64,000 nt of DNA from Hydractinia symbiolongicarpus (GCF_029227915.1 NC_079879.1:27443095-27507094), one strand, 5' to 3'; shown: positions 12,399-39,327, numbered from the stretch's first letter. Notes: generated by a model from the sequence alone, not told the origin. Program-made: numbers and translations.

Positions 12399-12799
12399 GT
12401 GAAGGTTTCTTACTGTTTTTTAAAATAAATATGTCGGCCTGTGGAATGAACCTCGTTTCTCTAGATTTTCTTTTAGAGTTTCCTAAATACTTAGATAAGA
12501 GTTTATGTGAACACTGAATTTGATTTTCTTTAAATGTGTTCTGTTCCAAAAAACAGTTACATCTGCAATCCCGACTATAACAAAAAAAACGAGTTTTTAA
12601 CCAACCATAATCAGTTTAGTAAAATAAACTCCGATATTTTCCTTACTTTTTTACGTACACACAAATAAAACCAGGTTTGTAAATAAACCTTTTTTGAAGT
12701 CTAACTTGAAATTTAAGACTGTTTTGTTCTGTAAATCATATTATACAATATCCTGTATTGAATGTTTGTATAGAGTGACTTTCTTTTTGTAAATTTCAG

Positions 12800-12997
12800 A
12801 AAGCGTCGGAATGGAAAATAGTGTTTTGGATAACATTTATCATTTATGTGATTGCAGTTGGTCTTTATTCTATAATGTGTTCTGGAGAAAGACAGTGGTG
12901 GGCTGATGGTTATCCAGAGAATGACAACGCAGATGAAAATGAAAATATAACAGATGAGGCGATAAACGAAGATACTGAACCAAGTGACAATAGATAA
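12800..12997 (+). CDS. SLC17-family transporter, exon 9 (terminal). The product has an acidic C-terminal tail.
   Basis: Product KASEWKIVFWITFIIYVIAVGLYSIMCSGERQWWADGYPENDNADENENITDEAINEDTEPSDNR, then TAA at 12995–12997. The nine exons sum to 1779 nt, giving 592 aa, and all exon phases are consistent. Confidence 0.8.
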   Translation, partial: KASEWKIVFWITFIIYVIAVGLYSIMCSGERQWWADGYPENDNADENENITDEAINEDTEPSDNR

Positions 12998-13546
12998 TAA
13001 TAATTTGTTATAATAACTTATGTATATAGTATATTTTTGATACAACACACCATCATTTTTTAGATTTCTTTGTTTCTTTTTTTACTATTGTTACTGCGCT
13101 TTTAGATATTTTATATCTTAGGGATGAGGGTTTAAACCAGCTAAAATAACGATTGAATGGGTTATGCCATGTTAAGTCTTATTCTAAAAACTTACTTATT
13201 GAATTTGCTTTGATAAATTCATCTTTGGTCACATAAACTTGTGTAATTGTGTGGTCAGTCTTCAACACAAGTAATCGTTCACATTATTGGTAATTTTAAT
13301 GCTGAACTGAACCAGATCTTCCAAAAATCATTTTTTTATTCAGACAGACATGTTGTTTGTCACATTTTTTTTTCATTAAATACTTTAACCTGCTACCATA
13401 TTCTCGGAGTAATTTGCACCTAATTACATAGGCTAAATGGGGGGGATTCTAGCGAACTGTTCTTTAGCTATAGATCAATTTTAAGAACAATGTTAATTTG
13501 TAACTTTTTATTTAACAATGCAAAGTTTGTGGAATTATATGCCCGT

Positions 13547-15704
13547 AAAACCATGTGAATTGGATGGGACAAAGTGTTTATGAGTTTCGGGCATATGCTT
13601 CATTAAACAAGGCTTAGACTTCTTGTTTAACTCTTCTAATAAATAAGGAGTCAATGACTATAGTAGAAGTCTTCGCGAACGCGCGGTCACAACTTTTGAT
13701 GGTTCTCACACGTTGTATGCATCAAGTATTCGCCAAAGTTAACAAGTATGCGCTGATATAGACAATGAGCAGCTAATCGAGGCGGTTAGCAGTGGATTTA
13801 GGGCGGGATTCATTGATGTTCATGGAACTGCGCCAAAAAGTGGGGTAGCAACGTGTTTTGAATGAAAGATTGGCCGATGTTCACAAGTGTGCTTTGATCG
13901 ATACGATGAGCAGCGAGTGTGGGACTGAATGAATGATGGATGTATACAAGTAGTCACTGTTACGTGGTGTAGGAGCGTTGAACATAGATGTATGTGCCAT
14001 GTTTACAACTGTGCATGGATACTCAATATAGGTGTTGGGTGAGGGACTGATAGAGGGGTATTCACCGATGCTCCCACAAGTGCATGTAGGTGCGCCAAAA
14101 ACGGTCTTAGTGTATCTCTGCTCTTTTATATCCCATTTTTTCTCGTGCAACCTAAATTTATTCCGCCTTACCGTTTTCATATAGAAAAACCCTGAAGATT
14201 ACCAGACAGAGAGAAAAACAATAAAAAAGCGTAATGGTCATTTCGGATTTATTACCAGCTTCTAATAATTTATGTTTTGGCAAAAAAAAAAGAGAAAGAA
14301 AATAAATAAAATTTTTGACATAAAAATATACGTGAAAAAAAATATTTAACGAAACACATTTCAAAAATGCACCAAGTTTAATAACTTTTATAATAAAATC
14401 ACTGTCACAATTGTGTACACATTCGAGGTTGAAATACAAAACAATATTCAGGTTTCAGAATTATCTGATATTGTTAGAGGGGCTAGCTAAATTTGTAACC
14501 ATAGACTACAAGATAATTTCATGTAACAAATATAAATAATAAATATATAAAACACAATATGATCACTAATCAAATAACTTTTAGTGATCGCTATTTCATT
14601 GATCATCTATATAGAATAAACCAGAATAAAAAATTTTAATAATCGCATTCGTTTATATAGCAAATGTACTTTCAAGATTTAAATTAAAAATATAATTGGT
14701 TGAGAACTTCCAAATTATAAAAATAATAACCAGACCAGACGAGAGAAGAATACCGTTAAATTGAACGCAAATTTAACAATTCACAGAATTTAATTTTGCA
14801 AGAAAATTTCTAGTTAAGTTTTTCAGAACTAGTTCTCAAATTCTGTAATTTACTGTAAAATTATTAGAAAATGGACACAAAGATAAAGCCTGGCGTGTTT
14901 TTAATGAAATTTTATGAGATCTAGCAGGTTTGTGAAATTCAATCCCCTTTAAGGAATCAAGAATTTTTGTAACAAACACAACCTAGACTAGATTTCTCAC
15001 AAAAATTCCTATTCATGTTATAACACATCCTTATATGGAAAACAGTACAGGATATTATATTACTTTTTCAATGTTTTTATTTTTATTATTAACTCCTGGG
15101 TATTATAAGAGCAGATGTTTTTTAAATTTTGTAAACATCTCAAACTCACATTGTAAACAAAAATTCTTAAAATAAGCCATTTTACTTTAAATATTTGTAC
15201 AATTACTCATTCACATGCTTAAGGTATTATACAAATATTGAGAAATGTTACTCCGAATGAATTCTTCGTTTATCATGCTCAACAAATTTCGTCCCCTCAT
15301 AGTTGCTGTGGTGTCTCGTTTTGTTCCGTCTTACAGAGTTTCTTAAAGAATGTCTGAAAGAGCTGAATTTTTTGTTCCATGATTTATTTCGTTGTGGTAT
15401 TTTTGTAGTATAACATCTTTGTGCTTGCTTACGGCTATCAAATACTTCTAACCCATCAACAACATTAAGATACAGATCCTTATATTTATTTAAATCCATT
15501 TCAAATCGAAATATGCCACCATTGCTGTATTTACTTTTTAATTTAAATTGTCTTTCAGCAAAGTCTCCTTGTTGTGGGAAAAACCCCATTTTTACTTTGT
15601 GTTTTTCAATTTCCAAATAAACCAAATCTCTCCAGGCAAATGTTTCCATCCTTTTAGGAAGAGTAAACTTTTCAATATATGACTCATATACGAAATGAAC
15701 TCCA
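13547..15704. repeat. Copy 1 of a ~2.16-kb near-identical direct segmental duplication. It carries the 3' flank and the last 457 bp of the FERM gene.
   Basis: 13547–15704 is collinear with 19495–21652 at a constant offset of 5948 bp. I saw a single mismatch in the stretch I compared base by base (ttttactt against tttaactt near 15595 and 21543). The ORF-track proteins at 13881–14180 and 14158–14439 are identical to those at 19829–20128 and 20106–20387. Confidence 0.9.
15248..15704 (-). pseudogene. Truncated duplicate carrying the 3' third of the FERM-domain gene (C-lobe and basic tail only)
   Basis: The 165-aa ORF at 15248–15745 matches the C-terminus of the 380-aa protein at 21196–22338 (VHFVYESYIEKFTLPKRMETFAWRDLVYLEIEKHKV...). 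Homology ends at the duplication edge and there is no N-terminal part. Confidence 0.7.
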
Positions 15705-16839
15705 GTTTTACTCCGGGTAAAAACGGTCCAAGAAATGCTTATCAAAAGCGTCCGCGTTTTTCGGCCCGTAGGTTTTTAAAAACGGTCGAGGACCGTAAGT
15801 ATTATATCTTTGGTACATGGTACCATACTTTTATCTGGTATGTGTTTTAAACGTGTCTGATGGTTTTACGAGCGCTAGAATTTGAAAGTCGAATAAATTT
15901 TCTTTCGATCGAATATAAACATGCTTATGTTGAACATCGTGGAATGTCTTTTTAGCTGTCTTGAAATAGTGCCTCTTTCAATTTTACCCTTCCAGTAACA
16001 AACTTTGTTGGGTATAGAATAGTATTAAATGGTATTATTTTTCTATTTGAAGGCATTAAAACGCAAGTTGTAAGACGAATCTTCAATTCTGTTGTTTTAC
16101 ATTTTTTAATTTTGAAGTTTTTTTGGTAAATAAAAGCAACGGAAGTATGGGAAAATTGTAGTAAGCTACGTATGGCAGTCTCAGGAATTAAGAAATGGCG
16201 GCCATTTTTAAATTGTTTCTTTTTTATTATATTCTGTAAACTAAGGTGTGTTAATGGTCTATCTGGCTATGTCCTATGAGTATAAGTATATTTTAGGTCT
16301 CATATAGCCGACTTCTCAATTTTTCACAATATATACAAGAAACCCATCCATATAAAAAAAATTAAAACTTGTCTTTAAAGCTAGCTAGCTAGCTAAATAT
16401 TTTGTGGATGTGTTGTCCCATTGTATAGCTATAGCTAGCTATGCTTTATTCTGACTAAATTTTCTCATGTATTAATTTTTTCGCAAGTTTTCATTCATCC
16501 ACAAGTAACAAGGAAAAATTTAGGGTTTTTAGGCAAAATAGATGCGTTAAACCGTAGCTAGCTAGAGTTCTGTGTATAGATGAGCGAATGTTTACAAAGT
16601 TCTGTATATGTACGCGCATTCTTACAGGCAATAAAAGAAGGACCACATAAGAAAAACTATTTCCACTAATTTATATATTTAAGGAATAAACGATCTAAAA
16701 GGAGCTGGAATTGGAATACCGTTTTTTTTAATTAAGAAAAGAAAAATGTTTTTTCCCTATAAATAACGAACTTGTGTTTATATATATATACGTTTATTCT
16801 TATTTTTTTTAAAACATTCCAAGACATAAAAATTCATTT

Positions 16840-16990
16840 CTTTGTGTCATTCGCCAAAATAAATTCCGTTAAAATAAACATTTTTTTGTATTCGCCAAAT
16901 TAAATCCTCGCCAAATTTTATAAAATTTATCATTCGCAAAATTAAATCCCCGCCAAGTATTCCATTTTGGTCATTCACCATTAAATACTC
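16840..16990. repeat. Degenerate ~38-bp tandem repeats immediately upstream of the unknown ORF pair
   Basis: The motifs cattcgccaaaataaattcc, gtattcgccaaattaaatcctcgccaaatttt, cattcgcaaaattaaatccccgccaag and cattcaccattaaatactctccaaaattt are imperfect iterations of one unit. Confidence 0.5.
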
Positions 16991-17137
16991 TCCAAAATTT
17001 ATCCACTTAAGATAGTAAATAAAAATATCCTCTCTTTTTCATCTTCTTTTTCTAAAATGACAGATAATAACTTTTCTTTTCTATATATATATATAATATA
17101 TATATTTATAATTACCTATGTTTTTAGATCATGTATA

Positions 17138-17641
17138 ATGATGTCAGATTTAATTGATTCATATGCAGAGTTGGACGAAAAAAATATCCTCGTCATCAAT
17201 TTAATAAAGTTTCACTTCGATACAATTTTAACATCTCTTAATCGAAAAATTCAAGCAAAACAAACTTTGTATAATCCCTTCAAAGTTGTCATTAATGAAC
17301 GTGTCCATTCCGAAATATTTTTAGCTGTTTATAAAGCCATTCGCGACTTCCGCACAGCTTACGGTAGAGAATTGATTGTTAAGAAAGACAAAAGTGGTAT
17401 CATTAAAGAAATTAGTATTATTTTTCACCATCTTGGGTCATTGAAATTCCATTTATCAAACTTGTCTAGCCTTGATATCAATAAAATATTCAAAAAGAAG
17501 TTTAAAAGCAATGCCGTCGGTGATATAATATGTGACGATGAAAAAAAATGTATTTTACATTACAAAGTGTCAACAAAGACATTAAATATAACTGCATCGT
17601 ACAAAGTTGTCAATCAATATGGTATGGTATGTAGTTATTGA
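17138..17641 (+). CDS. Hypothetical intronless ORF 1, about 167 aa, no recognisable domain
   Basis: The ORF-track ORF 17057–17641 begins in low-complexity (TA)n sequence, so I take the internal ATG ATG at 17138 as the more plausible start (MMSDLIDSYAELDEKNILVINLIKFHFDTILTSL...). It lies between the two duplicated copies. Confidence 0.35.
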   Translation: MMSDLIDSYAELDEKNILVINLIKFHFDTILTSLNRKIQAKQTLYNPFKVVINERVHSEIFLAVYKAIRDFRTAYGRELIVKKDKSGIIKEISIIFHHLGSLKFHLSNLSSLDINKIFKKKFKSNAVGDIICDDEKKCILHYKVSTKTLNITASYKVVNQYGMVCSY

Positions 17642-17696
17642 CAGAATTGGATTTTTATCCTAGTTAAATGTTTTTATTTTGTTGTATTTCTATGCC

Positions 17697-18518
17697 ATGC
17701 CTCCTAAAGGAAAGTCAAAGGCACAAAACATTAAGTTTTCCCAGTTAGGAAAATATACATCAAACAGAAAAAAAATCAACGATATGGATTTGAAAATTTC
17801 AAATCAGAGTAACCTAATTGAGGAAAAACAAAAACAATTAGCAGCATTGAGCAGTGAGATAACTTTGATTGAAAGGGATGTTGATAAGTTAAGAAATAGA
17901 TTAGCTAGAAAAAGAAAACGTGTTAGACACCTAAACTATGAGTGTAGTAAGAATAGAGTGGACTCTGAAGTCAAATTTAGCATCAGCAAGGTAACAGCTG
18001 AGAGGCGTAGTAAATTCCCATCATCTAGTGATTTAAATAGATCAGCAAAAGATACACGTCGTCTGGAAACATTTGAAGCTTGTTCTGCCATTCACGGAGG
18101 GTCTAAGGAATCTGTTCAGCCGGTTATGTTTGGTATGATTGACACATTGTGTTCGAAAATCCCCTCAAAAATGTTTGCAAAAAGTTTATTGAATGCTAAA
18201 TCATCTGTAGTAAAACAGATAAAGGAAACTACCATCAAAATAGCAAATGAAGAATTTTACAATTCAGAAGATAATAAACTACGTTCTCTCAATGTTTTTT
18301 ACAGCCACAATGTCATGGGGAAAGCTAAATACATGGCAATTAGAAAGGCAAATAGAATTTCCCAGAATAAACAGAATTCAGTGGTTAATTATATTCAGTA
18401 TCCTCATTTAGCAACCATTATCAATAACATTGATATAGGAACACTACATGACATACATCCAACTCTAACCTTTGGAGATGAAACAAGAGAGTGCTTTCAT
18501 GAAAAAGGTTTTTTCTGA
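17697..18518 (+). CDS. Hypothetical intronless ORF 2, about 273 aa. It has a lysine-rich N-terminus (MPPKGKSKAQ), a coiled-coil segment and a basic KRKR patch.
   Basis: The first in-frame ATG is at 17697. The ORF-track start at 17679 is a TTG alternative start. The segment EEKQKQLAALSSEITLIERDVDKLRNRLARKRKRVRHL is a predicted coiled coil followed by a putative nuclear localisation signal. I could recall no homolog. Confidence 0.4.
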   Translation: MPPKGKSKAQNIKFSQLGKYTSNRKKINDMDLKISNQSNLIEEKQKQLAALSSEITLIERDVDKLRNRLARKRKRVRHLNYECSKNRVDSEVKFSISKVTAERRSKFPSSSDLNRSAKDTRRLETFEACSAIHGGSKESVQPVMFGMIDTLCSKIPSKMFAKSLLNAKSSVVKQIKETTIKIANEEFYNSEDNKLRSLNVFYSHNVMGKAKYMAIRKANRISQNKQNSVVNYIQYPHLATIINNIDIGTLHDIHPTLTFGDETRECFHEKGFF

Positions 18519-19494
18519 TTTAGAAATTTAGACACCGTTTTTTGTTTAAAAGTTCAGTATGTTGATAGTTCGTGTTAGATGTATATTTTCCTTATTTCCT
18601 TATTCTGCTATATACTTTTTGTTTGCATAACATTTGCAATGTATATTTGTGAATCAGTGAGATAGTGTCTTTCGCAAGAGTATGAATATTAATTTTCCCA
18701 ATTAGAAAGCTCAAAGAAATCAATTTTTTAATATAAATGTGTGTGAATTAATGTTTTGTCAGAACATTTGGTACATAAATGTTTACGACGTAATCATATA
18801 GAAAGTATGGTGACTATTACAGCATAAAATTTATAATATTTACATCAAAGAATATGTATTTTATACAAATATATTTTATTTTTATGAGCATGGCAATGCC
18901 AAATTTTCTCTTGCAAAAGAAAACAAATTCTAGATCATCATCATTTTTTTCTGTGAATAGATGTTATAAAACACTAGCTATATGATAGTTTATATTTTAT
19001 TAAAAAAAAGTTTTCATAGTTCATATGTTTTATTTAAACAGAGTTGTTGTGTTATTATTTGCTTCATATTGAGATACAATGTGTCACAAAAGTAGTTTTT
19101 GTTGTTTGACTGTCCTGTGTGTTCTGGCAGCTAGCTAGCTGTGCTGCCTCCATCCCATCTTCTTTTTATTTTTTATTATATGCAATAATGAGTAACGGTA
19201 GCTACGAAAGCCATAAAATAACAATAATTTATCCATTTTTTACTCGTTATATACCAAATCAAAACTTTAAACACTTGCAGCAACCTTTCAGTGTGTTTAG
19301 CCAGGTAGCCATTTTTATTTTTCTACAAATCTCTCCATCGCGCTGCTGTTGTACCTGCTATTGTGAAAACCTAGGTTGCAATTGAAGGAGTGTCGAATTG
19401 CGGCGCAAACTCCATGTAACAATCCTTGACAAAATAGCCAGGCCGTTTGAAAAATACGAGTTAAGCATTTTCACACGGGAAATAGCCCGCCGTG

Positions 19495-21652
19495 AAAACC
19501 ATGTGAATTGGATGGGACAAAGTGTTTATGAGTTTCGGGCATATGCTTCATTAAACAAGGCTTAGACTTCTTGTTTAACTCTTCTAATAAATAAGGAGTC
19601 AATGACTATAGTAGAAGTCTTCGCGAACGCGCGGTCACAACTTTTGATGGTTCTCACACGTTGTATGCATCAAGTATTCGCCAAAGTTAACAAGTATGCG
19701 CTGATATAGACAATGAGCAGCTAATCGAGGCGGTTAGCAGTGGATTTAGGGCGGGATTCATTGATGTTCATGGAACTGCGCCAAAAAGTGGGGTAGCAAC
19801 GTGTTTTGAATGAAAGATTGGCCGATGTTCACAAGTGTGCTTTGATCGATACGATGAGCAGCGAGTGTGGGACTGAATGAATGATGGATGTATACAAGTA
19901 GTCACTGTTACGTGGTGTAGGAGCGTTGAACATAGATGTATGTGCCATGTTTACAACTGTGCATGGATACTCAATATAGGTGTTGGGTGAGGGACTGATA
20001 GAGGGGTATTCACCGATGCTCCCACAAGTGCATGTAGGTGCGCCAAAAACGGTCTTAGTGTATCTCTGCTCTTTTATATCCCATTTTTTCTCGTGCAACC
20101 TAAATTTATTCCGCCTTACCGTTTTCATATAGAAAAACCCTGAAGATTACCAGACAGAGAGAAAAACAATAAAAAAGCGTAATGGTCATTTCGGATTTAT
20201 TACCAGCTTCTAATAATTTATGTTTTGGCAAAAAAAAAAGAGAAAGAAAATAAATAAAATTTTTGACATAAAAATATACGTGAAAAAAAATATTTAACGA
20301 AACACATTTCAAAAATGCACCAAGTTTAATAACTTTTATAATAAAATCACTGTCACAATTGTGTACACATTCGAGGTTGAAATACAAAACAATATTCAGG
20401 TTTCAGAATTATCTGATATTGTTAGAGGGGCTAGCTAAATTTGTAACCATAGACTACAAGATAATTTCATGTAACAAATATAAATAATAAATATATAAAA
20501 CACAATATGATCACTAATCAAATAACTTTTAGTGATCGCTATTTCATTGATCATCTATATAGAATAAACCAGAATAAAAAATTTTAATAATCGCATTCGT
20601 TTATATAGCAAATGTACTTTCAAGATTTAAATTAAAAATATAATTGGTTGAGAACTTCCAAATTATAAAAATAATAACCAGACCAGACGAGAGAAGAATA
20701 CCGTTAAATTGAACGCAAATTTAACAATTCACAGAATTTAATTTTGCAAGAAAATTTCTAGTTAAGTTTTTCAGAACTAGTTCTCAAATTCTGTAATTTA
20801 CTGTAAAATTATTAGAAAATGGACACAAAGATAAAGCCTGGCGTGTTTTTAATGAAATTTTATGAGATCTAGCAGGTTTGTGAAATTCAATCCCCTTTAA
20901 GGAATCAAGAATTTTTGTAACAAACACAACCTAGACTAGATTTCTCACAAAAATTCCTATTCATGTTATAACACATCCTTATATGGAAAACAGTACAGGA
21001 TATTATATTACTTTTTCAATGTTTTTATTTTTATTATTAACTCCTGGGTATTATAAGAGCAGATGTTTTTTAAATTTTGTAAACATCTCAAACTCACATT
21101 GTAAACAAAAATTCTTAAAATAAGCCATTTTACTTTAAATATTTGTACAATTACTCATTCACATGCTTAAGGTATTATACAAATATTGAGAAATGTTACT
21201 CCGAATGAATTCTTCGTTTATCATGCTCAACAAATTTCGTCCCCTCATAGTTGCTGTGGTGTCTCGTTTTGTTCCGTCTTACAGAGTTTCTTAAAGAATG
21301 TCTGAAAGAGCTGAATTTTTTGTTCCATGATTTATTTCGTTGTGGTATTTTTGTAGTATAACATCTTTGTGCTTGCTTACGGCTATCAAATACTTCTAAC
21401 CCATCAACAACATTAAGATACAGATCCTTATATTTATTTAAATCCATTTCAAATCGAAATATGCCACCATTGCTGTATTTACTTTTTAATTTAAATTGTC
21501 TTTCAGCAAAGTCTCCTTGTTGTGGGAAAAACCCCATTTTAACTTTGTGTTTTTCAATTTCCAAATAAACCAAATCTCTCCAGGCAAATGTTTCCATCCT
21601 TTTAGGAAGAGTAAACTTTTCAATATATGACTCATATACGAAATGAACTCCA
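19495..21652. repeat. Copy 2 of the ~2.16-kb direct segmental duplication. It is contiguous with the full-length FERM gene.
   Basis: See copy 1. Identity ends exactly at 15704 and 21652. Both copies are preceded by a similar motif, gcccg..aaaacc. Confidence 0.9.
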
Positions 21653-22338
21653 TTTTCTGACAAAGCAATGAAAAAACTCTCTGTAGCTTTATCACAAATA
21701 TTGTAAATGATATAACCATAGAGGGGAACTTTTTGAACAAGACTAAGATATAATATATCTGCTTGTGCTGGGCGAGTACCCTGTAATTGTTTGTGATACA
21801 CTCTTACCAGTTTCATATAATTAATTTCAGAAATTGTTTCATTGCAACTCAGTGTTGTTGGAGCAAATATTTCGAATTTGTTCATTTCTGTAGAATACTC
21901 TTTTTCATTTACATTAAAATTACCCAGTTCAGCTTGTGCTATAAAGGCATCAAGCATAGCATGTGTTTTAACATTGCAACCCAAGTCTCCATTAATCAAC
22001 AGCCCTTTCATAAAATGCCTGAATAAGCGTCTTCCTTCTGCAGTTGTTATTGCTAAGTCTGGATTTCTTGGATAAACCCTCACAGCAAAGTGTAAACAAA
22101 CTTCCTCAGTGTCTGAGATAGAACGCAAATATTTCAGTGTCCTTAGGTTTTCTTCCGGTTGTAACCAATTCATACCAGCATCATTTTTGTCCGAGTATCG
22201 TAAACCGAAAATTTGGCTATCGTTTGATATTTTCAGTGCATTAAATGTTTCTTCCACAAGGAAATTTCCTTTCAATTTCTTTGATTTCAAATGTATATGT
22301 ATATTTTCACCATTAGGTAATATTATGCTAAAGTCCAT
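21196..22338 (-). CDS. Intronless FERM-domain protein, 380 aa. It has a ubiquitin-like N-lobe, a helical M-lobe and a PH-like C-lobe, followed by a basic tail.
   Basis: ATG at 22338. The N-terminus MDFSIILPNGENIHIHLKSKKLKGNFLVEETFNALKISNDSQIFGLRY matches the FERM-N pattern. FAVRVYPRNPDL...GRRLFRHFMKGLL matches the FERM-M lobe. VHFVYESYIEKF...GIFRFEMD matches FERM-C. Confidence 0.7.
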   Translation of the reverse strand: MDFSIILPNGENIHIHLKSKKLKGNFLVEETFNALKISNDSQIFGLRYSDKNDAGMNWLQPEENLRTLKYLRSISDTEEVCLHFAVRVYPRNPDLAITTAEGRRLFRHFMKGLLINGDLGCNVKTHAMLDAFIAQAELGNFNVNEKEYSTEMNKFEIFAPTTLSCNETISEINYMKLVRVYHKQLQGTRPAQADILYLSLVQKVPLYGYIIYNICDKATESFFIALSENGVHFVYESYIEKFTLPKRMETFAWRDLVYLEIEKHKVKMGFFPQQGDFAERQFKLKSKYSNGGIFRFEMDLNKYKDLYLNVVDGLEVFDSRKQAQRCYTTKIPQRNKSWNKKFSSFRHSLRNSVRRNKTRHHSNYEGTKFVEHDKRRIHSE

Positions 22339-23399
22339 CCTTCAAGTACAATCTTTTTTAAAGTAAACGAAAAATACGAAAACTTAGCAATAGCTATTTT
22401 TAAAAAAACGTGCCCTTCTTTGCGACATTTCCACTGCTTATAATTAAACTTCCCGCCTGTCGGTTTCTTAAAATAGCTACACCCCCAATCCATGGATTCG
22501 ACGTCTTCTGATATTTCTATTTAAAAGTATAGCTGGAATGCCTAGAATGGGTGACCATGGATATGTAAACAAATGGAAATTGCTTCACTCTCCATCGCAG
22601 TGTTTACAACTGTGACAAATCCTATGATCAAGACCCGTAACCTGGAACCAAACCCCGAACCCCGAAACCCGGTAATCAATACCCCGTTGCCTTTTCCATT
22701 TGGCTTTCTGATTTCTTCATATCTCGGGACAGCAAGAAACTCGCCAGTCCTTACTGGGTTTTAGGGCCGGCAATAATGAAGACCGGTATGAAAAAGAAAT
22801 CGTTAAAAAAGATTGTATTTTTTTGTCGAATATATTTATTGTTTACATTGTTTTGCAGTTGTGGGGCACCGTACCCATCAAACTTTCAAATTCTATTCCT
22901 ACAAGTCAAACTTATTTTTAACAAAGTATTTTTGTTAAATTAGATTAAAAAATTAAAGGCCGCCACCAACCTCGTCCCCAGTCTTGTTGGGCTTTTTATA
23001 TTTGGACGGCATGCAAATATGAAAACCCTAACAAGTCCTGTACACCCCTACCTTAAAAAAAACTTGGGAAGTAAGTCCTGTACACCCTACCTTAAAAAAA
23101 CTTAGGAAGTTGTCCATTTTATGCATTTAGCAAAATTCAAAGAGCTGCCCATTAAACTGTAACCAACCATTCAATTAAGTACCGAAATCGAGTATCGTTC
23201 AAAAATAAAATAATACATCAAAACCAATCATTTTTATAAATTTGTGTCTTTTACACAACTAAACATTGTTTGATTTGACAATTCCGAAATATATTCGGCA
23301 TGTATGCGTTTAGATAAAAACAAGCTTCAACCACAGCAGAAAAAGCATTGTTTAATGCTTCAACATTTTTCAAAAAATAGCATTTTTGTAAGTTAAGTA

Positions 23400-23750
23400 T
23401 AAGTTGTAACAAAATCTTAGTTGTAGCAAAATCTTAGTTGTAACAAATTCTTAGTTGTAACAAAATCTTAGTTGTAACAAAATCTTAGTTGTAACAAAAT
23501 CTTAGTTGTAACAAAATCTTAGTTGTAACAAAATTGAAGTTGTAACAAAATTTTAGTTGTAAGAAAATCTTAGTTGTAACAAAATTGAAGTTGTAACAAA
23601 ATTGAAGTTGCAACAAAATTGAAGTTGTAACAAAATCTTAGTTGTAACAAAATTGAAGTTGTAACAAAATTGAAGTTGTAACAAAATTGAAGTTGTAACA
23701 AAATTGAAGTTGTAACAAAATCTAAGCGTATCGAAGGCTACAGTGTTAAA
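23400..23750. repeat. 17-bp minisatellite, about 20 copies, with units cttagttgtaacaaaat and tgaagttgtaacaaaat
   Basis: The tandem array is clear by eye with two alternating unit variants. It lies about 470 bp downstream of the F-box gene stop. Confidence 0.85.
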
Positions 23751-23825
23751 TGATGATAAAAAAAGGCGGTAACAAAGACGTACAAACACGTTGCAAAATC
23801 CCGTCGCAAAAGAGTTTGTTTCTTA

Positions 23826-24114
23826 AGGGAGATTTTCACGAAGCGAATTGAACGGCGAATTCGATGGCGAATTGTATCTGAGCATGCGCAGTTTTGTTTG
23901 TTTTGATTTTGCATCGAAATATTCGCTTCGCTGAAAAGTAGAAACAGTTCCTACTTTTTAGCGGCTAAAGGTTTCGCTGCTAGATTTTTACCAATCAGAA
24001 CGCGGTTAACTAATGTAAACAATGAATTTTGCGCCTTATTTATTTTGTCGTGAAAATTAAAAATCGAATTCGCCATCGAATTCGCCGTTCAATTCGCTTC
24101 GTGAAAATCCCCCT
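23826..24114. mobile_element. PIF/Harbinger-type MITE, 289 bp, with ~48-bp TIRs and a TTA target-site duplication
   Basis: Left end agggagattttcacgaagcgaattgaacggcgaattcgatggcgaatt matches the reverse complement of right end gggggattttcacgaagcgaattgaacggcgaattcgatggcgaatt. The flanking trinucleotide tta is present on both sides (23823–23825 and 24115–24117). There is no ORF. Confidence 0.6.
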
Positions 24115-24218
24115 TTACGCAACAATATTTTTTTAAAAAAACAGCAATGACTTCTTAGTAAAACCAACTAGTTGACGAATACAACTTAAACACCTGTTCT
24201 TGAAACATCTATTAGTAA

Positions 24219-25322
24219 CTATTTTTCAGTAGTCAATGTATATTCTTTCAGTTGTTTGAGTTGAAGAATCTCTTTGACAACATCATCATTCATTTTACAC
24301 ACCACGTCCAATACTGTCAACTTTTTACATTCTTTTACAAGATTAAGAACAGCATTGTCTAACTCATGACTTGTTGTCGTATAAATGCAAAGAGATTCTA
24401 ATGTGGTTGAGTAGATTGATGAAACCAAGTTGATGTGGTCAATAACAATTGAGTATAAACATAATTTCAATATAGAAACAGGAGCTTCTGGGACTAAAAC
24501 TCGATATGTTAACTGCAATGGACAAGTGTGGTTGAACCAAACTTCAAGTTTTAAATTAGGAGATTTCTTTTTTATCATCAACCATTCCTCGTCGGTAACA
24601 AATCTGGAATACTTTGCAGCACTTGTAAACAGAAGAGAAATAAATTGAACTTCGGCTCTATCTGCATTTCCAAACGCTCTTAATACGTCGCTACAAAAAC
24701 ATATAGCTTGGACATACAGGTATTGTAGACGACGAGCTTTCTTTACAAATGCGACTAGCATAGCACGTGATATCTGATAGACCAATGTGTTGTTTTGAAT
24801 GTTCAACACCTCAAGATAAGAGGCGTGACATTTGGTTATTGTCTTCAAAAACTCGTCTGTTATCGCGATTGGAAATTTGGATAAATCAATTTTAGTGATG
24901 TAACACAAGGATTTAGTGTTGAAAAAGTCCTGCAGGTTTTCTAGATAACATCTTCCAGAGAAAAAGAAAGGGTTTTGTTCGCAAAATTCTAATTTGAATT
25001 CTTGTAATTCCAACCGTTTTTTTCTTGCTAAATCTTGAACGAAGTTTCCGCTATTTCTGCAGTTATCTGCAGCTCGCTGGTGACATTTGATGTGTAAATG
25101 ACGAAAAAATTCACCGTAGTTTTTTGCGATATCTCGTAAGTTGACGTCACATAAGCCTTTTTGGAAATCTACCTCCACAGTGTACCACAACTGTGGTGAC
25201 TTCATACACTTGTTCCATGTTTTGCACACTTGGGCTGCGTTTAAACGGTCATCGTTCGTCAAATTTTGAAATATATTTACGTAGATTTCAGCAGGTAATG
25301 TCTCCCAATTACTTACTAACAT
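24219..25322 (-). CDS. Intronless F-box protein with C-terminal leucine-rich repeats (FBXL-like), 367 aa
   Basis: ATG at 25322. The N-terminus LPAEIYVNIFQNLTNDDRLNAAQVCKTWNKCMKSPQLW is a canonical F-box. It is followed by LxxLxL-type repeats. Confidence 0.75.
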   Translation of the reverse strand: MLVSNWETLPAEIYVNIFQNLTNDDRLNAAQVCKTWNKCMKSPQLWYTVEVDFQKGLCDVNLRDIAKNYGEFFRHLHIKCHQRAADNCRNSGNFVQDLARKKRLELQEFKLEFCEQNPFFFSGRCYLENLQDFFNTKSLCYITKIDLSKFPIAITDEFLKTITKCHASYLEVLNIQNNTLVYQISRAMLVAFVKKARRLQYLYVQAICFCSDVLRAFGNADRAEVQFISLLFTSAAKYSRFVTDEEWLMIKKKSPNLKLEVWFNHTCPLQLTYRVLVPEAPVSILKLCLYSIVIDHINLVSSIYSTTLESLCIYTTTSHELDNAVLNLVKECKKLTVLDVVCKMNDDVVKEILQLKQLKEYTLTTEK

Positions 25323-34508: not shown

Positions 34509-35361
34509 CTTTGAATGGAAACATAAAAAACAAACTTTAATTTTCCTTATTTTGAAATCAACATTTCAAGGGTGAAAACTGTTTGGTAAAAGGTATAATA
34601 TTTTGATGCAATTAAATAAATTCAGTTCACTAGCTATTCCCGAAAAATATATAACAATTAATGCACTGCATTTTCCAAGGAGTTAAGAACCACACTAAAC
34701 TTTTAGAGTAAACTAAATTGAATTTAGTATTTTATGGTTTAATTTTTATGTGTTGAAATCAATGGCAGCAATATGAACATATAATGTAAACAAAATTAGT
34801 ACACTTCTGTGGCTGAATATCAATCTTTTTGTTGGAAAGTTAAATTTGCAGTTCTGTATGGCTAAATTTGTAAAATTTAATTATCTTGCCTATAAATACT
34901 TGATAATTTCAAATAAATTATGATTACTTGCAACAAATGAAAATAATATTTAAACCAAAAGTTGAATTTGTTCAATTTTTTTACAAAAAGATTTAATTTT
35001 TATATTTTCTAGATTAGCTTTAGCTCAACTTTGAGATTAGCAGTAGCAAATACTGCATAAAATTTATCAGTTCAATGTTCAAGTTGAGTATTCAAGAAAG
35101 GAGAAAAAATGCAATATAAAGGTTAAAAATTGAAGGAAACAAAGGAGGAAAAAAATACAAGGTGAAGATAAAAAAGGTATTAAAAAGCATAATATTTGAA
35201 TGAAAAACATATGCAATACTGGGACTTAGTGGAAAGTATAACATTCCTGTCATTATTTCTGATATTCTGTAAAAAGTTTAATTTTTCTGACAATTCGTAC
35301 ATATTTTCAAAATTTCTAACAAGTCCTGGACAGCCTAAACTTTCACAAAGAATCTCCAAAC

Positions 35362-35625
35362 CTGTCATTCTTTCTTTTCCATTTTTATCAACCAAATCTT
35401 GTTTAGCTTTCAATCGCAATGCAGTTCCAAGTAATATTACACAAGGTTCTACAATGCCAAGATTTTTACACTCTGGTCTTGGATAATAAGTCCTTGGCCC
35501 CTCAATTTGCCACTCTTCTCCAGCTACTCTTTCCACTCCATTGTCATCAAATGAAACCAAGGCTTGAAGTTTTAGTGCCTTGCATGATGGTACAACTGGT
35601 AGCTTAATAATAGCCATCTTGTAGT
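35362..35625 (-). CDS. MVP: major vault protein, exon 5
   Basis: Product YKMAIIKLPVVPSCKALKLQALVSFDDNGVERVAGEEWQIEGPRTYYPRPECKNLGIVEPCVILLGTALRLKAKQDLVDKNGKERMT. Compare human [43 protein letters not shown]...GKERVTGEEW. Confidence 0.85.
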
Positions 35626-35919
35626 CTAAAGTATTGGTATAAATTTCTATATATATATTATTGCTACAACGCCATTAGTGAATTTCTGCAGTATATATTG
35701 GTAACCATAACAATTCTTTTTAAATAATGAATAAAAACAAATGGCATATTAAAATGTAACAAAATAAAAATATTTTAACCCCTGGGCTTTCAAGGACAAG
35801 ACCAAAAAAGTTGTCTGTCTGCCTGTCATGCTACCAATTTGCATGAAAAACAGACAGACAGACAGACTAATATATATTCACATAGGATAATATAATGTAA
35901 TGTAAAAGGCAATACTGAC

Positions 35920-37903: not shown

Positions 37904-39327
37904 TAAAACAAACCGAAGTGGCTACAAGTACGTGACCGTATTTTAATTTTTTTTTGCTACAAGTACGTGAATGCGTAAAATGCTGGTAAGCGTACATAAA
38001 ATCACCAGTGACGCCCTTTGTGCGTGGCGTGGAGAATATTGCAGAAGGTGCAAAATAGCATTCCTCGTGAGTTATTTACAAGTGAAAGAATTGCTGTTAA
38101 TTAAAAAAATTAATTTATTAAAAATGAATGTTGGTAGTTTTCTAGTTTTTGACGAATTGCTAAAGGCTATTAACGAGCATGAAAAGTCAACTTTTACACA
38201 ACTGTATGTAAGGAGTTCAAGATCAGTAGAAAGTGGAGCAAAAAGAGCTAGCAAAAAAGTTTTTAAGGAAGAGTTGAAGTACGCAGACTACGCTTGCATT
38301 CATGGGGGGAAAGAATTTAAATCAGCTTCTACTGGAAAGCGCAAACATAATGCGCAAGTTTTTTTTATATATATTGCTATCGGTTTTTTTATATATATTG
38401 CTATCGGTATGCACAAAAAAAAATCCGACCGTATATCATACTTGCGGCGAGTCAAATATTCCGTTTTTTCTTACAGGAATGTTTTGATGAAAACCTTTCG
38501 CTGCAGGCATCACAAATGTTAAAAGTGAAAGCCAAAAAAATAAATTCAAAACCATATTTCCAATCTGTGTGGGAAAAATGTTATCTTGAAAGACCTTCAT
38601 AACATGAGCTCAAAAAACAACGAGAGTGGCTGAAATAATGTACAACAGCTACTCGAAGAAATGAAAAGTGTGCCAGGTAAATTTGAATGAAAGTGAGTGT
38701 AGTTACTATTCTTCCATAATAAAAAATTCCGATGCGAAAATAAATGTAAGATAATAACTAACAAATTTTCTTTAGGGGCAACTGTGGTAGCTGGAGACGT
38801 AATCTTTATTTCAATCGTCACAGCGACGAAACAATTAAAAAAACATCATCTGGCACATTACTTTCATCACAATTAGACACATGCATGCAGTGGCTGTGTT
38901 CTTCATTGCCCACATTAACGCTGAACTATTTGACATAGGTACACATATTTTCGTTGCAGCCTCCATGTTCTTTTTTTTGACTAATATGAGCATCATATCT
39001 TCTTGATAATATTCTTAACATGACCGTACCCTGAAAACATATAATCAGCCTTGTAACATACGTAGTCAAAGTTGTAGAGATGTAAATAAAAGCTCCTAGT
39101 TCAGAGAACCCTAAAAAGAAAATATCTTTTCATCGTCAACTCTCAAACCAACCCGCTGGCCAAGCGACTTCTAGAAAAAAGAAATACGTGAGTGCCGTAC
39201 TTCCAACAAATGAAAGTAAAAATACGTAAATGCCGTACTTCTAGCAAAAAATAGTAAAAATACGTGAATGCCGTACTTCTAGCAAAAAAAAAGTAAAAAA
39301 TACGGTCACGTACTTGTAGCCACTTCG
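37904..39327. mobile_element. Non-autonomous Mutator-like (MULE) element, 1424 bp. It has ~75-bp TIRs with sub-terminal repeats and a perfect 9-bp target-site duplication aaaacaaac.
   Basis: Left terminus cgaagtggctacaagtacgtgaccgtatttt... equals the reverse complement of the right terminus ...aaaatacggtcacgtacttgtagccacttcg. The direct repeat aaaacaaac is present at 37895–37903 and 39328–39336. The sub-terminal motif atacgtgaatgccgtacttctagc is iterated three times. The internal ORF resembles a FAR1/MULE DNA-binding domain. Confidence 0.65.
37971..38522 (+). pseudogene. Remnant N-terminal FAR1/MULE-type transposase DNA-binding domain. It is interrupted by a 24-bp tandem duplication and a frameshift.
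   Basis: The segment MNVGSFLVFDELLKAINEHEKSTFTQLYVRSSRSVESG...KEELKYADYACIHGGKEFKSASTGKRKHNAQ fits the FAR1 DNA-binding pattern F.s.eea..fY..yA..gF.vr..s......f.C..eG......gkRk. The sequence ttttttatatatattgctatcggt occurs twice in tandem at about 38355–38405. Confidence 0.4.

Follow-up and report, generated by a model that had tools for sequence, protein, structure and literature searches.

A gene pair of unassigned function in Hydractinia symbiolongicarpus probably belongs to an internally deleted DNA transposon with a predicted RAG1-fold transposase

Background

A stretch of 64,000 nucleotides of the Hydractinia symbiolongicarpus genome (GCF_029227915.1 NC_079879.1:27443095-27507094; hereafter, the window) contains two adjacent, uninterrupted open reading frames (ORFs), ORF1 and ORF2, in which no protein domain had been recognised. 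What are they? An earlier note, made from the sequence alone, placed them with a FERM gene and an F-box gene in an island of intronless genes between intron-rich neighbours, and listed retroposition, lineage-specific de novo genes, and captured viral or transposable element (TE) genes as possible origins. Here, we report that ORF1 and ORF2 are most probably the two genes of a cut-and-paste DNA transposon, and that the copy in the window is dead. We put the probability of this reading at about 0.85. Our verdict on the family is that it is a poorly described lineage of the CACTA/Transib clade whose transposase has a predicted RAG1 fold.

Results

Two genes in an internally deleted transposon copy

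ORF1 and ORF2 lie on the plus strand, 55 bp apart, where the earlier note had placed them; ORF1 is nested in a longer ATG-initiated ORF at 17057-17641, and ORF2 lies within an ORF at 17679-18518. Both are genuine coding sequence, as had been supposed. An exhaustive search returned 166 cluster representatives of ORF1 at E<=1e-3, nearly all of 160-170 amino acids (aa), and the full-length form of ORF2 has at least 250 homologues. The pair falls exactly between two direct copies of a block of host DNA (copies A and B), in an insert of 3,786 bp (Table 1), and both ends of the insert bear the terminal and subterminal motifs of the transposon family described below. The inner part of the 5' terminal inverted repeat (TIR; AAAAACGGTCCAAGAAATGCTTATC...CGGCCCG) aligns with the 5' TIRs of the related loci L001 and L013 and with the reverse complement of the 3' TIR.

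Positions 17044-19092 of the window are 98-99.8% identical to transcript contigs of full-length copies, assembled from public sequencing runs (L002-L005 and L010-L012), and these carry 1,544 extra bases. Complete relatives have lengths of 5.1-5.3 kb. In L002 the extra segment is 1392-2935, and its flanks align at window positions 17126-18486 and 18487-19092. By tblastn, residues 1-264 of full-length ORF2 are placed at 17697-18488 with 99.6% identity and nothing is found beyond them; the same program detected no second copy of the element elsewhere in the window. The length of the deletion is not divisible by three, and all residues from 265 on are lost, including the whole catalytic core. ORF2, which had been taken for a complete gene, is a deletion stump, and the window copy could yield at most ORF1 and a 264-aa N-terminal fragment of the transposase. 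The copy is dead, ordinary transposon debris.

An insertion of retroposed, spliced mRNA or of endogenised viral genes would agree with the lack of introns in both ORFs, and one weak Pfam match to a viral coat domain (E 0.1) points the same way. Such an origin is nevertheless extremely improbable. The 3' end carries a TIR instead of a poly-A tract, and the inverted termini of the insert, which are foreign to an mRNA copy, lie 1.4 kb before and 1 kb past the ORFs; no other virus hallmark gene was seen on the element or its relatives.

Two candidate boundaries were rejected. None of the CAC-tipped inverted repeats sought near the ORFs in the window is real, since the 5' tip is mutated. The (TA)n tracts beside the ORFs were considered as a microsatellite target site, but the true termini lie further out and the TA tract at 17082-17112 is inside the element. 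Motifs of the type GCTAGCTAGC recur in the 5' and 3' non-coding parts of the element (16380-16570 and 19126-19145). The 5' non-coding region of the Hydractinia element measures 1.43 kb versus 0.52 kb in a second subfamily represented by L013, and this longer region (by ~0.9 kb) may contain a nested insertion.

Predicted fold of the full-length ORF2 protein

Full-length ORF2 was reconstructed from L002 after removal of a 2-bp insertion private to that contig. The resulting protein of 792 aa is 100% identical to RefSeq XP_057297789.1 (P0028), an "uncharacterized protein". At two more RefSeq loci the encoded protein matches it at 791 of 792 residues, and at least one of these loci is on a different chromosome-sized record; intact ORF2 is annotated three times elsewhere in the genome, each time as "uncharacterized", and frameshifted variants occur on other contigs.

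Pfam gave only coiled-coil or noise matches for ORF1, ORF2, full-length ORF2 and family members (43+52), which bears out the statement that neither ORF has a recognisable domain. No relevant match to ORF2 was found in the PDB by phmmer or hmmsearch, using single sequences and profiles. A structural model was generated with AlphaFold2 from an alignment of 43 diverse homologues (mean predicted local distance difference test score 88.6). Foldseek comparison of this model to the PDB returned 44 significant matches, every one of them to the RAG1 core or to amphioxus RAG1L (BbRAG1L); RAG1 is the recombinase by which vertebrates assemble their antibody genes. The best match was 4wwx_E (E 7e-15; ~690 aligned columns; 10% identity), and the next match after the 44 had E>1.

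Residues D318, D399, E701 and E704 are invariant in the 43 sequences. In the model, D318 is located on a strand (309-320), D399 follows a strand (385-395), and E704 is on a helix (701-714) that comes after a long helical insertion. D318, D399 and E704 are thereby predicted to form an RNase-H-type DDE site where it is expected in the fold, and we infer that they match D600, D708 and E962 of RAG1 one-to-one. C-terminal of the catalytic glutamate is an invariant CxxC-x9-CxxC motif (cysteines 762, 765, 775 and 778). Near D399, no column has cysteine at >=60%, and only the isolated histidines H511 and H683 are conserved. Alignment of the ORF2 profile to mouse RAG1 595-1007 (a query 100% identical to PDB 4wwx_B) by hhalign was not significant (E 0.05, probability 1%). 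A by-eye motif match to RAG1 was dropped, as the sole stretch aligned by hhalign differs from it, and the residue-level claim is limited to the invariant D, D and E.

The proposed homology of ORF2 draws on the predicted structure and the anatomy of the element. A resemblance to a known TE protein, which had been named as something that would overturn the earlier view of the pair, is seen at these two levels and not at the level of sequence. At the N-terminus, the model has one long helix (residues 8-83) in support of the coiled coil noted before, and a basic, coiled-coil N-terminus fits the suggestion of a nucleic-acid-binding protein. ORF2 would thus be a transposase composed of a basic N-terminal segment, a long coiled coil, helical domains, the DDE core and the CxxC-x9-CxxC motif.

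Element ends, target site duplications and relatives

The ORF1-ORF2 pair recurs in tandem in L001, L006, L007 and L013-L015 and in convergent orientation in ~30 metagenome loci. A scan of metagenome contigs added 80 loci, and gene order was taken from hidden Markov model (HMM) scans of all fetched loci. The two genes share a strand in the Hydractinia-type lineage, with ORF1 directly before ORF2; ORF1 of a second lineage lies 0.25-2.9 kb downstream of ORF2 on the opposite strand. The metagenomes with the second lineage are presumably coral-associated. In every unit where both ends were seen, ORF1 is inside the termini.

The 3' tip of the window copy (the reverse complement of CACGGCGGGC) also bounds the ORF1-ORF2 units of the unrelated contigs L001, L006, L007, L013, L014 and L015. 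The consensus of 36 distinct ends is CACG[C/G][C/T]GGGC, followed after ~12 nt by CAAAAtG; in L013 and L023 the tip reads CACGGTG. Nine elements with both ends were recovered, 4.9-6.0 kb in length and all with CAC...GTG tips. Perfect 3-bp target site duplications (TSDs) flank four of the nine (ACC in L014, ATT in L065, AAT in L052 and GAT in L024), versus ~0.14 expected by chance, and a 5-bp TSD flanks none of them. An intact element would therefore measure ~5.3 kb and have bipartite inverted termini, each made up of CACG[C/G][C/T]GGGC, ~12 nt and an A-rich, CAAAATG-like box. ORF2 is proposed to bind these bipartite ends, cut at the CAC tips and integrate with a 3-bp stagger.

L013 (from run SRR18218887) represents a second subfamily beside the first in the same sample, with 61% identity in ORF2 and 49% in ORF1. 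Reverse-transcriptase or long terminal repeat (LTR) retroelement genes adjoin relatives of the element from other genomes at L006:1868-3012, L007:2281-5891 and L015:2406-3581, and these relatives therefore sit in repeat-rich regions.

The transposon has 99.8-100% nucleotide identity to the window in contigs L004 and L005 (window 17044-19092; runs SRR3722613 and SRR18218884/87). In the same samples, the orthologous FERM locus is 92-95% identical in coding or mRNA sequence and 83-87% identical in non-coding sequence (window 12732-23008 versus L008 and L009). L008 and L009 are 99.9% identical to each other, and the four FERM protein variants encoded by sequencing-run contigs each have 11-12 differences from the reference in 380 residues. 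If the runs are from the sister species H. echinata, at a divergence of ~19 million years, this suggests that the element either passed between the two horizontally not long ago or invaded both very recently.

Transcription with a host spliced leader

Contigs L010, L011 and L012 start with TATTTC(T/A)AGGTCCCTGAGTTTAAG joined to window position 17128, just past a tttttag acceptor, and continue through ORF1 and full ORF2 on single contigs. The leader matches, with one mismatch, a published H. echinata spliced-leader primer for rapid amplification of cDNA ends (...tatttctaagtccctgagtttaag; PMC4421858), and trans-splicing has been documented in Hydractinia (PMC11067881). Full-length copies therefore make a single bicistronic mRNA capped by the spliced leader, in keeping with the co-transcription that the earlier note had put forward for checking; this reading comes from full-length copies. 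The proposed mRNA of the element would carry the host leader 10 nt before ORF1, then ORF1 and ORF2 in tandem.

In L002, a different 5' sequence (GAATAAGATGAACTTTTTTTGAAGTGGGAG; L002:1-28) is joined to the same acceptor (17127|17128), which may come from a further variant of the spliced leader or, where the element has inserted at another site, from an upstream exon. Neither the spliced leader nor the alternative 5' exon of L002 is present in the window. A second polypyrimidine tract with AG (tttttatcctag) is found at 17652-17663, in the 55-nt spacer and with 33 nt between it and the ORF2 ATG, and may be an internal trans-splice acceptor that gives ORF2 its own capped mRNA, as in operons.

Transcription and receipt of the host leader, as for host mRNAs, would also be expected of an operon-like host gene pair, lineage-specific, de novo or domesticated, with no relation to mobility. 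RefSeq lists the full-length copies as ordinary "uncharacterized protein" genes, and ORF1 is intact in the window. We consider a host gene pair very unlikely, however. The unit is multi-copy and nearly identical on different chromosomes, and frameshifted and deleted variants exist; in several genomes, conserved inverted termini with 3-bp TSDs mark its limits; the orthologous site is empty in a related Hydractinia; and the hundreds of homologues rule out a de novo origin. ORF1 and ORF2 are best read as genes of a transposon.

ORF1 as a putative partner of the transposase

ORF1 of the window is 100% identical to P0017. P0017 has a precomputed Pfam assignment, PF26709 (DUF8238), as do the ORF1 homologues in L006, L007 and L013-L015; our own searches with ORF1, in the PDB and in a Pfam set that lacks this model, gave coiled-coil noise and no significant Pfam or relevant PDB sequence match. 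The protein is predicted to be of alpha/beta type with a fold unlike any solved structure. As linkage of ORF1 to ORF2 persists through a change in gene order, we argue that ORF1 is a functional partner of the transposase, and by the same linkage it may be an obligatory accessory subunit.

A duplicated host block around the insert

Copies A and B of the host block are in direct orientation and 99.9% identical, with two mismatches in 2,162 positions. The block consists of the last ~153 codons of the FERM gene and ~1.7 kb downstream. An ORF at 15248-15745 on the minus strand repeats the C-terminus encoded by the FERM ORF (21196-22338, minus strand), and its first 12 codons come from the transposon end. 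A genomic contig from a related Hydractinia (L008, 4.9 kb) is collinear across both block edges, contains the block once and lacks the insert. The ancestral state was therefore L-A-R, where L and R are the left and right flanks, and the window has L-A-insert-A-R.

The 3' junction is exact, passing from the element tip to the first base of the block. The 5' junction (ACTCCAgTTTtACTCC) repeats flanking bases and looks like templated end-joining filler. At the left edge of the block (13540-13547), TTATATG and CCTGTAAAACC are separated in L008 by 37 additional bases. Immediately to the left of the block, the host sequence reads GCCCGT, which is similar to the element tip GCCGTG, and this microhomology might have guided formation of the junction. 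We propose, with roughly even odds, that the A-transposon-A arrangement arose by an aberrant transposition or repair event in which the element ends joined host sites 2.16 kb apart, duplicating the DNA between them. The 3' end would have joined precisely at one host site and the 5' end, 2.16 kb off, by error-prone end joining.

Alternatively, the arrangement may have been created by the assembler, and the true locus would have a single copy of the block, perhaps with a simple TE insertion. High heterozygosity (1.33%) and many falsely duplicated loci in initial assemblies are reported for the Hydractinia genome (PMC11067881), and we found no independent contig over either junction. The two copies differ by 0.09%, though, which is ~15-fold below expectation for two haplotypes at 1.33% heterozygosity, and they are therefore unlikely to be two stitched haplotypes. 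An assembler also needs both junctions in real reads, most simply from one haplotype that carries both, and the 3' junction falls exactly on the element terminus. An artefact is thus unlikely, and we retain a real duplication with the transposon at its junction.

Neighbouring genes and other features of the region

The FERM and F-box ORFs have full-length identity to H. symbiolongicarpus RefSeq proteins XP_057307877.1 and XP_057307879.1. Both coding sequences are therefore single-exon, as the earlier note had read them, and the FERM cDNA contig L009 is collinear with the genome. They are ordinary host genes unrelated to the transposon. In the rest of the window, outside 13.5-25.4 kb, the longest stop-to-stop ORF is <=228 aa, and short ORFs carry fragments of Vault-repeat (MVP) and Metallophos (CPPED1-like) domains, which fits intron-split genes.

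A 17-bp unit (AGTTGTAACAAAATCTT) is repeated ~19 times in tandem at 23327-23794, in the interval that separates the FERM gene from the F-box gene. Beside this array, at 23825-24115, two 49-nt inverted repeats with 98% complementarity are separated by 193 nt and may be a small element resembling a miniature inverted-repeat transposable element (MITE). Near a Vault-repeat (MVP) exon at 35183-35674 (minus strand), a 183-aa ORF at 37971-38519 (plus strand) has a sub-threshold Pfam match to ZSWIM3_N (E 5e-5; 24.2 bits versus a cut-off of 27.8) and may be another transposase-derived fragment.

Table 1. Features of the transposon copy and its surroundings, in window coordinates
Feature	Position	Strand	Remarks
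Host block copy A	13547-15708		2,162 bp; identical to copy B except at 15593 and 15705
Duplicated FERM 3' fragment	15248-15708	-	Last ~153 codons and stop; gene fragment
Probable two-gene TIR DNA transposon, internally deleted, non-autonomous	15709-19494	+	3,786 bp; full length ~5.33 kb
5' TIR, degenerate tip	15709-15775	+	Reads TACTCCGGGT where CACGGCGGGC expected
Polypyrimidine tract and AG, Hydractinia spliced-leader acceptor	17116-17127	+	10 nt upstream of ORF1 ATG
ORF1	17138-17641	+	167 aa, intact; putative DUF8238 family; conserved partner gene of transposase
ORF2-delta	17697-18518	+	Residues 1-264 of 792-aa transposase (predicted RAG1 fold) and 9 out-of-frame codons; without catalytic domain
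Breakpoint of 1,544-bp internal deletion	18486-18487	+	L002 1392-2935 missing from window
3' TIR	19430-19494	+	Ends ...GCCCGCCGTG (reverse complement of CACGGCGGGC); abuts copy B
Host block copy B	19495-21656		Continuous with intact FERM gene
Host single-exon FERM gene, "band 4.1-like protein 1"	21196-22338	-	Pfam FERM_N and FERM_M; XP_057307877.1
Host single-exon F-box gene LOC130645797	24219-25322	-	Pfam F-box and F-box-like; XP_057307879.1

Discussion

The question of origin raised by this locus can be answered with the list given in the earlier note. Captured TE genes stand. A de novo origin falls, given hundreds of homologues that include those in other cnidarian-type genomes and metagenomes, and so does retroposition, with neither poly-A nor a retro-type TSD to be seen. 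The coherent island does not survive either: it consists of two host genes and a transposon between duplicated host DNA, and their proximity is coincidental.

Several points weigh against our reading. Five of the nine complete elements have no TSD. Mobility is read from sequence comparison, and transposition itself was not observed. The fold of ORF2 is that of a predicted, not a solved, structure, and no sequence-level link to RAG1, Transib or CACTA emerged from Pfam, phmmer and hmmsearch against the PDB, or hhalign. The role suggested for ORF1 follows from linkage. At the locus itself, the 5' tip of the window copy is not CAC, which excludes a clean transposase-made junction on that side, and the proposed duplication mechanism is conjecture. 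No independent contig across the A-transposon-A junctions was found, and 11 small ORFs that span a junction or are internal to the element gave no exact match in the protein collection.

For annotation, the two "orphan genes" are transposon debris and the extra FERM fragment is part of a duplication. The locus is also a clear case of a very recent duplication, copying part of a host gene, with a transposon at its junction. Proteins of ~800 aa that carry the label "uncharacterized" and escape Pfam now have a high-confidence prediction of a RAG1 fold. Confirmation would extend the range of known RAG1-type recombinases covered by this family, and its intact, transcribed and nearly identical copies would provide a tractable element in a laboratory cnidarian for the question of the accessory subunit.

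Comparison with known transposon systems

Internally deleted, non-autonomous derivatives are well known, such as Ds from Ac and KP from the P element. Like these, the window copy keeps both ends and the 5' part of the transposase ORF, and the deletion takes the catalytic domain; the stump retains the presumed DNA-binding and dimerisation region. Unlike Ds and KP, the window copy is also damaged at its 5' tip. Tandem direct duplications by sister-chromatid or reversed-ends Ac/Ds transposition have reportedly been described in maize in work by Zhang and Peterson. As in these products of alternative transposition, the window has a transposon placed exactly at the duplication junction, with the same host block on either side in direct orientation. 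In the Ac/Ds events, both junctions are precise and made by transposase. In the window copy, a mutated 5' tip and filler-like sequence next to it indicate that end joining produced at least one side.

EnSpm elements are recognised by 5'-CAC...GTG-3' termini and a 3-bp TSD, and C(2)C and H(3-4)H zinc motifs unite the CMCT clade of RAG1, Transib and CMC (CACTA, Mirage and Chapaev) transposases (PMC12730594). The present family agrees with EnSpm/CACTA-Mirage-Chapaev elements in its CAC...GTG termini, 3-bp TSDs and more than one gene per element, and in a DDE transposase of a kind thought to be distantly related to RAG1 and Transib. It departs from them in that the C(2)C and H(3-4)H motifs are not conserved, no CACTA-type Pfam model matches, its tips are CACGG or CACGC rather than CACTA, and ORF1 is, as far as tested, unrelated to TnpA-type proteins.

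With RAG1 and RAG-like (RAGL) elements, the family shares the predicted RAG1-core-like fold of ORF2, for which RAG1 and RAG1L are the nearest solved relatives. The DDE triad on an RNase-H scaffold, predicted for ORF2, is common to RAG1 and Transib, and the 36 ends likewise start with a CAC heptamer, similar to recombination signal sequences. The differences are considerable. Identity to RAG1, BbRAG1L and Transib is ~10%, and no match was obtained by Pfam (43 members), HMMER or hhalign; the TSD is 3 bp and not the 5 bp of Transib and RAGL; the ZnC2 and ZnH2 residues (C..C and H..H) of RAG1 are missing; and ORF2 has an N-terminal coiled coil and a C-terminal CxxC-x9-CxxC that RAG1 and Transib lack. 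In place of the RAG2 Kelch propeller of RAGL, the partner is a small alpha/beta protein, putatively of the DUF8238 family.

Could the element nonetheless be a bona fide Transib or RAGL transposon, and a direct relative of the ancestor of RAG1-RAG2? RAG1 and BbRAG1L as best structural matches, termini with a CACGGTG-like heptamer, spacer and A-rich box, and a lineage with a convergent partner gene as in RAGL elements would all suit this proposal. It is unlikely all the same, given the TSD length, the undetectable sequence similarity to RAG1, the absence of both zinc motifs and an ORF1 of 167 aa with no Kelch propeller. No solved CACTA, Mirage or Chapaev transposase was among the fold-search matches, and therefore the fold search cannot separate these lineages. 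The family looks closest to RAG1 and RAG1L by structure and CACTA-like by insertion signature.

Our literature searches on DUF8238 and on this transposon family returned nothing specific, and the family is not described in the sources searched; Repbase and Dfam, with possible prior EnSpm or Chapaev entries, were outside the search. Taken together, the observations allow a wider and distinctly more tentative proposal, one that we think less likely than not: an undescribed RAG1-fold lineage that works as two subunits with DUF8238, has bipartite ends, is active in Hydractinia and has recently moved between Hydractinia species. The recent move is proposed because the element is 99.8% identical while orthologous host DNA is 83-95% identical. 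Under this proposal, the ends would be of a heptamer-spacer-A-box type, and the DUF8238 partner would have been acquired independently of RAG2 and kept in tandem or convergent orientation. If true, the family would represent a second, independent case of a RAG1-type nuclease recruiting an accessory subunit.

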